Below are positions 1,451-1,580 of a DNA stretch of 12,111 nucleotides, one piece after another. The stretch lies in the UHGV virus genome UHGV-0179104; one strand, 5' to 3'. Within the stretch, counting starts at the first letter, position 1, and each line of letters opens with the position of its first letter. The translations under genes were made by a program, and so were the position numbers. The notes beneath the pieces were generated by a model. That model did not search any database. It had not been told where the DNA came from and saw only the letters and a list, made by a program, of their open reading frames with translations. Source of the DNA: a virus.

Positions 1451-1478
1451 TTGACAATAATGATAATGTTTATATAGA
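1451..1478 (+). promoter_or_regulatory. Candidate sigma70 promoter (TTGACA-N16-TATAGA) reading antisense to the late operon
   Basis: Perfect -35 TTGACA at 1451-1456 and -10-like TATAGA at 1473-1478, in an AT-rich context. No scoring matrix applied. Confidence 0.3.
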
Positions 1479-1529
1479 AAGGTTCCCGATGTGTGTTACA
1501 TATCATTTCTCCACGGGGAATATCCCCAC

Positions 1530-1580
1530 GCCAGCGCAGACTCTTTTACCCGTTCTCTTCTGCGCTGGCTCTTTTTTATT
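1530..1580 (+). terminator. Putative rho-independent terminator on the plus strand
   Basis: Perfect 11-bp inverted repeat GCCAGCGCAGA (1530-1540) / TCTGCGCTGGC (1559-1569) with an 18-nt loop, followed by TCTTTTTTATT (1570-1580). The T-tract is on the plus strand only. Confidence 0.45.

Follow-up and report, generated by a model that had tools for sequence, protein, structure and literature searches.

A promoter-terminator unit beside the holin gene of a lambdoid prophage as the probable gene for EcOnc32, an Hfq-dependent small RNA with apparent kinship to Esr41

We consider it highly probable that the plus strand at 1451-1577 of the window (the whole 12,111-nucleotide stretch of UHGV virus genome UHGV-0179104 analyzed here) is the gene for EcOnc32, an Hfq-dependent sRNA of lambdoid prophages in pathogenic E. 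coli; this judgment covers the best explanation as a whole, including pairing in trans and entC as the best-supported target. EcOnc32 is not new: it was catalogued in 2014 and has been barely studied since. Published data on the identical sequence show that the transcript exists, binds Hfq, and needs Hfq for its abundance, and that, in two pathotypes, chimeras join it to the entC ribosome-binding site. EcOnc32 most likely acts in trans by pairing with ribosome-binding sites, and comparison of sequence and fold indicates that it is a diverged relative of Esr41, an iron-homeostasis sRNA.

Identity and expression of the EcOnc32 gene

Positions 1436-1600 of the window are 100% identical to prophage PP4 of EPEC E2348/69, with near-identity extending over 1335-2000, and the identity to prophage Sp3 of O157:H7 Sakai (NC_002695.2) is likewise 100% over the aligned part, 1454-1600. 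EcOnc32 was placed at 901574-901662 on the minus strand of Sakai, in Sp3 (Tree et al. 2014, Mol Cell 55:199, Table S2), an interval that corresponds to about 1494-1582 of the window, and the gene has the same position and strand as in Sakai with respect to EcOnc13, the holin, and Q. According to the same table, Hfq-CRAC yields a large cluster of cross-links on EcOnc32, and the RNA runs at ~112 nt on northern blots. The published northern probe, ATATTCCCCGTGGAGAAATGATATGTAACACACAT, matches the minus strand of the window at 35 of 35 bases (1489-1523) and therefore detects a plus-strand RNA. EcOnc32 is listed again in Table EV7 of Waters et al. 2017, EMBO J. The initial annotation had proposed, from the letters only, a short plus-strand RNA running from promoter to terminator, possibly an independent prophage sRNA; both proposals are borne out by the northern, Hfq-CRAC, RNase E-CLASH, and RIL-seq data published for the identical sequence, the expression evidence being that of the literature on Sakai and EPEC. 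HnrS (EcOnc10-12) was considered as an alternative identity and rejected, as it is a different, 66-nt multicopy sRNA located in Sp9, Sp10, and Sp12.

The EPEC study lists EcOnc32 as a CDS, with the label E2348C_1013 (Pearl Mizrahi 2021). Its RNA-seq entry there has a baseMean of 2064, a log2 fold change of -2.91, and a padj of 1.4e-23, comparable to the log2 fold change of -2.78 for PasA; the negative sign is read as lower abundance without hfq because pasA, pasB, and pasC, whose Hfq dependence is validated, are also negative in that table. The RIL-seq fragments of EcOnc32 lie at 1060613-1060672 on the minus strand of NC_011601 and represent its terminator half, ending 3' at the U-tract; position 1060613 equals 1578 of the window. 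EcOnc32 is RNA2 in all of its EPEC chimeras, and being RNA2 in most chimeras is criterion 1 for calling an sRNA in Table S6 of that study. On an assumed reading of unlabelled columns, the two RIL-seq sheets assign it ~808,000 of 18.2 million and 259,000 of 19.7 million chimeras; we took these sheets as the activating (DMEM) and non-activating (LB) conditions, respectively. By the same assumed reading of the table, EcOnc32 is among the most abundant Hfq-chimera partners in the EPEC interactome.

Full-text searches for EcOnc32, ECs0817, and E2348C_1013 returned no paper that discusses this RNA, the name being confined to supplementary tables; its function, its regulation, and its kinship with Esr41 are thus undescribed within the papers searchable by full text. 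A 161-nt query (1440-1600) was found in 604 of 5426 complete E. coli genomes, usually as a single copy, and 564 copies were at least 99% identical to it; Esr41 was found in 695 genomes. In the phage genome collection, the EcOnc32 gene occurs in one record only, that of phage Evi. When one genome per bacterial species was queried with the core motif, seven matches were obtained, all in unrelated uncultured genomes and read as chance, and none in the other enterobacterial species representatives, so that this search added nothing to the covariation analysis.

Promoter, transcript boundaries, and fold

Direct reading of the plus strand confirms the proposed TTGACA-N16-TATAGA promoter as well as the 11-bp perfect hairpin and its T-tract (Table 1). 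The stem is formed by GCCAGCGCAGA (1530-1540) and TCTGCGCTGGC (1559-1569), separated by an 18-nt loop, and is followed by TC and then TTTTTT at 1572-1577. The hairpin follows the promoter in the order claimed, but the gap between the -10 hexamer and the hairpin is 51 nt rather than the ~55 nt given in the initial annotation. The -35 TTGACA is invariant across every aligned copy, namely the EcOnc32 variants, Esr41, PasA, and PasC. At the -10, the Stx-phage variants have TATAAA and Esr41 has TATATA, and the TATAGA of the window is without the conserved final T. Our consensus scan required a T at position 6 of the -10 hexamer and a terminator loop of no more than 8 nt; hence, the promoter was unlisted because its -10 lacks the final T, and the terminator was unlisted because its loop exceeds 8 nt. 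With up to one mismatch allowed, the promoter pattern is expected 0.10 times per window and is present in 19 of 200 shuffles; by itself, the promoter match is weak evidence, within chance.

The TTGACA/TATAGA promoter is expected to start transcription near 1484-1488, which would give an EcOnc32 of 90-93 nt, shorter than the northern band. The consensus scan listed a second candidate promoter, CTGACT-18-GATAAT (1438-1467), and a start at ~1474 from this candidate would suit the ~112-nt band better; its -10 (GATAAT) is not conserved.

The stretch 1485-1580 (96 nt) folds into three hairpins with an energy of -34.9 kcal/mol (z = -7.66), a stability matched by 0 of 200 shuffles. Between the first two hairpins, H1 and H2, the predicted fold leaves each base of the seed AUUUCUCCAC with an unpaired probability of 1.00. 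EcOnc32 carries two features of an Hfq-dependent, trans-acting sRNA, namely an 11-bp terminator stem followed by UCUUUUUU and an accessible seed. The terminator U-tail and U-rich loop are presumed to be the Hfq-binding module, and the reads in RNase E-CLASH terminate in TTCTGCGCTGGCTCTTTTTT.

Table 1. Coordinates of the EcOnc32 gene and neighboring features in the window.
Feature	Position	Strand	Basis or remark
EcOnc32 -35 hexamer TTGACA	1451-1456	+	Direct read and alignment
EcOnc32 -10 hexamer TATAGA	1473-1478	+	Direct read, 16 nt past the -35
Putative Fur-box-like 19-mer AATAATGATAATGTTTATA in the promoter spacer	1456-1474	+	Consensus match
EcOnc32 sRNA, whole	1485-1577	+	~90-93 nt from this promoter; northern ~112 nt
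5' hairpin H1, 7 bp, loop GUU	1488-1504	+	Predicted fold
Single-stranded seed AUUUCUCCAC, Shine-Dalgarno-complementary	1505-1514	+	Predicted unpaired, C/U-rich, 10 nt
Hairpin H2, GGGGA-AUA-UCCCC	1515-1527	+	Predicted fold
Rho-independent terminator: 11-bp stem, 18-nt U-rich loop, UC, U6	1530-1577	+	
SASA/NanS-p esterase gene, 3'-end remnant	1578-1700 (end approximate)		Alignment with sequence downstream of PasA/PasC
PasD1/EcOnc13, short PR' transcript, STnc100-like	1759-1931	-	Ends mapped from EPEC 1060260-1060432

As a coding alternative, the initial annotation had pointed to a small hydrophobic peptide from an ATG at 1489. The ATG is present and opens a frame, and RefSeq annotates a 132-aa hypothetical protein over 1493-1891. 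However, this ATG and its frame exist in the window type only, since variants A2, B, and C start 2 nt later in another frame; the downstream frames shift with terminator indels and with the length of the T-tract, and no stop codon occurs ahead of the terminator. The 132-aa frame traverses the terminator, runs antisense to the validated sRNA PasD1, and, like the peptide, has no Pfam match above threshold and no PHROG match. The proposed peptide therefore falls, and it is extremely unlikely that either frame is a real gene; the 132-aa ORF is probably an annotation artefact. A small protein of the type I toxin kind was also rejected, as a conserved frame with both start and stop inside the transcript was looked for and is absent.

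Kinship with Esr41 and the prophage moron slot

Esr41 (Rfam RF02676; EcOnc14) is an EHEC sRNA that represses chuA, cirA, and bfr by direct pairing. The Rfam Esr41 model matches 1490-1579 over its full length with 32.3 bits (E = 0.0063); this is far below the gathering score of 102, so EcOnc32 was rejected as Esr41 itself and kept as a diverged relative. For the reverse comparison, variants of EcOnc32 were gathered from prophage contigs, namely the window type, a G1491A form, a type that in two E. coli chromosomes directly follows stx1 and stx2 on their downstream side, and a type with a different terminator. Model R1, built from the window copy and five variants without Esr41, matches the window at 1488-1577 by construction (112.4 bits) and finds Esr41 in SpLE1 with 30.2 bits (E = 2e-5). 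The pairwise alignment of EcOnc32 with Esr41 is identical at 79 of 103 positions (z = 8.7).

The three-hairpin fold is common to all EcOnc32 variants and Esr41. Variants that are ~85-88% identical retain the promoter, all three hairpins, and the seed, and three pairs of H1 are altered on both sides between EcOnc32 and Esr41. In the model alignment, 94.1% of the cells are paired and four pairs are changed on both sides, a result reached by 1 of 500 shuffles, in an alignment of only seven sequences that was fitted to the model. The hairpin covariation that the initial annotation had named as a check is thus seen in the relatives within those limits, and the conservation of promoter and hairpin together, on which it had staked its reading, also holds, both hexamers and hairpins being kept in diverged copies. 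The reciprocal model matches and the shared three-hairpin structure with compensatory changes point to common descent of EcOnc32 and Esr41.

The two RNAs share a 5' hairpin, a single-stranded UUUCUCCA that is identical within the two seeds, a GGGG/CCC(C/U) hairpin, a GCC(A/G)GC terminator, and a U-tail, together with the same -35 hexamer, Hfq binding, and iron-metabolism targets. The two also differ. EcOnc32 has 90 nt and Esr41 has 72-74 nt, and the terminator loop is 18 nt in the former instead of ~8 nt in the latter. EcOnc32 lies in the late region of a lambdoid prophage, whereas Esr41 lies in SpLE1 (O-island 43/48) beside iha. The spacer of the EcOnc32 promoter matches the Fur box at 15 of 19 positions, compared with 12 of 19 in Esr41.

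The window belongs to a lambdoid prophage and spans its early-right and late region, which is read on the minus strand. From Pfam matches, this region contains O, P, NinB, an HNH endonuclease, NinG, a phosphatase, antiterminator Q (3211-3834), and DUF3927, followed by a P21-type holin with an annotated start at 1350, a phage lysozyme, and Rz. Between DUF3927 and the holin, two small transcription units face each other in convergent orientation. The minus-strand unit starts from PR' (TTGACT 1966-1961, TAAAAA 1943-1938) and gives a transcript of ~173 nt, whose strong terminator consists of 1785-1767 and a T8 run. The transcript is the one named PasD1 in EPEC and EcOnc13 in EHEC; it matches Rfam STnc100 with 37.5 bits (E = 2.7e-5), and the published PasD northern probe matches at 24 of 24 bases (1775-1798). 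The other unit is EcOnc32. Its orientation is as originally described: it is antisense to the late transcript, which depends on Q, and lies a short distance upstream of the holin.

This arrangement raises the possibility that EcOnc32 is a cis-antisense regulator, which pairs with the Q-dependent late mRNA or is transcribed convergently with it and thereby tunes the holin, lysozyme, Rz, and the timing of lysis. The layout suits this reading, as EcOnc32 is encoded opposite to the late strand and is flanked by PR'/PasD1 (1931-1759) on one side and by the holin start (1350) on the other. Once Q permits readthrough from PR', a perfect complement of EcOnc32 becomes part of the late mRNA, and the holin-adjacent placement is conserved, with PasA and PasC in the same position and orientation in other prophages. 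However, in the lysogen, the late-strand transcript ends at the 1767-1785 terminator, ~180 nt short of EcOnc32, and every recorded partner of EcOnc32 is trans-encoded. Its relative Esr41 has no lysis genes nearby in SpLE1 and yet works in trans. Duplex predictions with the starts of the holin, lysozyme, Rz, Q, and DUF3927 were either shuffle-like or needed the terminator to be opened and so were uninformative, and those with the three lysis genes gave only implausible structures of this latter kind. No evidence was found that EcOnc32 tunes lysis-gene expression; we therefore regard regulation in cis as unlikely, lytic growth being the phase in which it might still operate, and retain trans pairing as the preferred mode of action.

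The slot itself belongs to a known moron site. Sp3 and seven other prophages carry convergent sRNA pairs where morons are inserted downstream of PR' (Tree 2014), and PasA and PasC (Pearl Mizrahi 2021; Zhu, Shabalina & Storz 2026 preprint) occupy the same slot as EcOnc32, between an esterase 3' end and a class II holin. They are likewise antisense to the late operon and convergent with PasD in the same orientation, and they share the -35 TTGACA, a GCCAGC..GCTGGC-T7 terminator, and esterase-derived sequence after the terminator. In contrast, their RNA bodies are unlike that of EcOnc32, without H1 or H2, and the proposed seed of PasA is within the terminator stem. The R1 scores of these units are marginal, with 16.4 bits for the second PasA unit (E = 0.047), 16.0 bits for PasC (E = 0.059), and 12.9 bits for PasA (E = 0.31), and the pairwise z values against PasA/PasC of 3.1 and 4.5 come mainly from the promoter and terminator. 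Rfam Esr41 matches near PasD were noted in the preprint of Zhu, Shabalina and Storz (2026), and we infer that in PasD loci with such a match the slot is filled by the Esr41-like EcOnc32. AgvB and AsxR (Tree 2014) also come from the moron site downstream of PR', as Hfq-bound members of convergent sRNA pairs antisense to the late/stx transcript; however, these RNAs of 51-60 nt have no sequence relationship to EcOnc32 and serve as sponges whose targets are GcvB and FnrS. Neither the AgvB nor the AsxR family has an Rfam match in the window at E ≤ 1.

In the EPEC PasA/PasC loci, the esterase stop codon lies 1 nt past the T-tract, and in the window type, the esterase gene itself is deleted. The unit could accordingly be a decaying leftover, in which an old esterase-moron terminator stands beside a chance promoter-like sequence and yields a functionless transcript. 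The survival of only the esterase 3' end right after the T-tract would suit this, as would the promoter match, which alone is not beyond chance. Against it stand the near-identical copies of 1440-1600 in the complete E. coli genomes, the ~85-88% identical variants that keep promoter, hairpins, and seed, and the abundance and Hfq dependence of EcOnc32, so that a functionless remnant is very unlikely. A functional sRNA gene remains the preferred reading.

Targets, mechanism, and a possible link to iron

The partner of EcOnc32 with the best support is entC, which encodes the first enzyme of enterobactin synthesis. In EPEC RIL-seq, EcOnc32 is joined to the entC 5'UTR in 263 chimeras from three libraries (odds ratio 14, p = 4e-165), and the entC segment in these chimeras runs from -42 to +7 of the start codon. 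In EHEC RNase E-CLASH (Waters 2017), four EcOnc32 hybrids were recovered with ECs0632, which is entC, at the same site as in EPEC; these reads join ACATATCATTTCTCCACGGGGAAT to the entC ribosome-binding site. The entC site was thus recovered independently in the two pathotypes, although the EHEC CLASH counts for EcOnc32 are small (4, 2, 1, and 1 hybrids). In the predicted duplex, positions 1498-1518, which contain the seed, pair with UUUUGUGGAGGAUGAUAUGG of entC, spanning the Shine-Dalgarno sequence and the AUG. The duplex has an energy of -22.7 kcal/mol vs. -15.3 ± 3.1 for shuffled targets, and 11 of 500 shuffles are as good. From the chimeras and this duplex, we infer that EcOnc32 represses entC; literature searches found no published reporter or compensatory-mutation test of EcOnc32 targets. 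Contact with entC by a relative of Esr41 fits an iron theme because Esr41 represses chuA, cirA, and bfr.

Other significant EPEC partners are the rpoS start region, the dnaK 5'UTR, fdoG, and several intergenic regions. Most EPEC partners of EcOnc32 have low odds ratios (2.8-14), and several are intergenic or, like the rpoS start region, known Hfq hubs; the duplex predicted with that region was no better than shuffles. These features bear on the possibility that EcOnc32 is a sponge or Hfq competitor, an anti-sRNA in the manner of AgvB and AsxR, which soaks up a core sRNA or occupies Hfq. Its share of Hfq chimeras is unusually large (~4% in DMEM by the assumed column reading) in combination with those low odds ratios, half of the significant partners are intergenic, including mcaS.ogt.IGR, and sRNAs at the moron site can be anti-sRNAs (Tree 2014). 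However, EcOnc32 is always RNA2 in its chimeras, as criterion 1 for an sRNA has it, its seed resembles that of Esr41, a direct mRNA repressor, and its sequence has no similarity to AgvB or AsxR. A role as sponge is therefore improbable, and direct pairing with mRNAs remains the reading that we prefer.

The proposed mechanism can be set out as follows. The TTGACA-16-TATAGA promoter, a sigma-70 promoter, would drive a transcript of ~90-110 nt, composed of the 5' hairpin, the 10-nt seed, the second hairpin, and the Rho-independent terminator. The U-tail and the U-rich loop of the terminator would hold Hfq, and the seed would pair in trans with the Shine-Dalgarno/start-codon regions of mRNAs, with entC as the best-supported target, so that their translation would be blocked.

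The promoter spacer offers a new lead on regulation. The Fur-box-like 19-mer agrees with the Fur consensus GATAATGATAATCATTATC in 15 of its 19 positions, and the window has no other such site; first-order Markov random sequences give an expectation of 0.05 per window. AT-rich prophage DNA exceeds this Markov rate, with ~10 other distinct Fur-like sites in 730 kb of partly redundant loci. By the same measure, the fepB-entC intergenic region, which harbors known Fur boxes for the fepB and entC promoters, contains two sites that also match at 15 of 19 positions. Variants A, B, and C keep Fur matches of 14-15 of 19, in B and C despite a diverged spacer, compared with only 12 of 19 and 10 of 19 in the Esr41 and PasA promoters, respectively. 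This pattern is no more than suggestive of Fur control of the EcOnc32 promoter. Separately, ~3 times more Hfq chimeras of EcOnc32 are found in the sheet read as DMEM than in that read as LB, which would be an indirect hint on iron control; the hint is non-specific because PasA, PasC, and PasD show the same RNA-seq trend. RyhB, the core Fur-repressed iron-sparing sRNA, is a possible functional analogue, as an Hfq-dependent sRNA directed at iron-related mRNAs and with a Fur-box-like sequence over its promoter. The two RNAs have no sequence relationship, however, and Fur control of EcOnc32 is putative.

A bolder reading, which we put forward tentatively and hold to be possible rather than probable, is that EcOnc32 is a Fur-repressed relative of Esr41 that damps enterobactin synthesis through the entC ribosome-binding site when iron is scarce, by which the prophage would rewire host iron uptake, and that EcOnc32, Esr41, PasA, and PasC would be diverged members of one family of holin-adjacent late-antisense sRNA genes with swapped seed modules.

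The present case indicates that a sequence-only reading picked out a real, experimentally verified sRNA gene, and it serves as a positive control for such readings. EcOnc32 has been neglected, appearing in supplementary tables only, as a 132-aa hypothetical protein in RefSeq, and under a CDS label in the EPEC interactome. The iron-regulation angle is new, modest, and testable. If the kinship with Esr41, the entC partner found in two interactomes and pathotypes, and the Fur-box-like spacer in all variants hold, EcOnc32 would open the interference of prophages with the iron homeostasis of their hosts to direct experiment.

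EcOnc32 promoter and variants

The promoter spacer of EcOnc32, the plus-strand Hfq-dependent sRNA gene, contains a Fur-box-like 19-mer, and a match of 14-15/19 is kept by all EcOnc32 variants, whereas the promoters of PasA, an EPEC prophage sRNA, and of the related E. coli sRNA Esr41 fall below this score. In two E. coli chromosomes, variants are located immediately downstream of stxB1 and stxB2, and the deposited phage collection holds a single copy of the gene, in phage Evi. The PasA locus of EPEC PP2 contains a second, diverged promoter-to-terminator unit, arranged in tandem downstream of PasA, which accounts for the 236-nt "minor" PasA transcript. 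The terminator and 3' flank of this unit are the portion closest to EcOnc32 (16.4 bits with R1, the covariance model built from EcOnc32 variants without Esr41).

Features in the window and at the compared prophage loci
Feature	Position	Strand	Remark
Terminator-like hairpin plus T-run, GGGCCATCAGGAATTAACTGGTGGCTTTTT	1388-1416	minus	late strand
Fur-box-like 19-mer	1456-1474		15/19 match
132-aa "hypothetical protein"	1493-1891	plus	RefSeq; ECs_0817 / E2348C_1013
Esterase remnant	1578 to about 1700		reverse complement of stop codon and last codons
PasD1/EcOnc13	1759-1931	minus	~173 nt; promoter 1938-1966
744-bp membrane-protein gene	2216-2973	minus	between Q and DUF3927
590-aa ORF	6170-7942	plus	nin region
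EcOnc32 variants, stx loci L005 and L006	2549-2639 (each)		~85-88% identical; antisense to toxin operon
Second unit, PasA locus L003	2767-2852	minus	EPEC PP2

Convergent transcripts and the overlapping annotated ORF

EcOnc32 converges with PasD1/EcOnc13, a short STnc100-like transcript from the late promoter PR' that is closed by a strong terminator at 1785-1767 plus T8, and approximately 180 nt separate their 3' ends. Directly after the EcOnc32 T-tract starts the remnant of a SASA/NanS-p sialate esterase gene. This gene is intact at the PasA and PasC loci, which carry EPEC prophage sRNAs in the same slot next to the holin, whereas the esterase moron is deleted in the window, thereby leaving PasD1 and EcOnc32 close together. 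The annotated 132-aa ORF overlaps EcOnc32, continues past the terminator of the sRNA and lies antisense to PasD1. A Pfam search with this ORF gave nothing above threshold and a PHROG search gave no match; the gene call is probably spurious and masks EcOnc32 in published tables.

Other genes in the window

Compared with prophage L001, which is otherwise 99% identical, an A-run near 2465 has lost 1 nt, which splits the membrane-protein gene into two ORFs; this gene is a pseudogene in this strain. The 590-aa ORF, on the strand opposite to its neighbours, has a full-length match to phrog_9230, whose function is unknown; Pfam and PADLOC searches returned no match. For the equivalent stretch of L001, the annotation gives two hypothetical proteins that overlap.

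Hairpin upstream of the holin

A distance of 38 nt separates the late-strand hairpin from the start codon of the holin gene downstream, and the PasA and PasC loci carry a similar hairpin. The hairpin may prevent expression of the lysis genes as long as the antiterminator Q is absent, or a sense-strand small RNA may end there.
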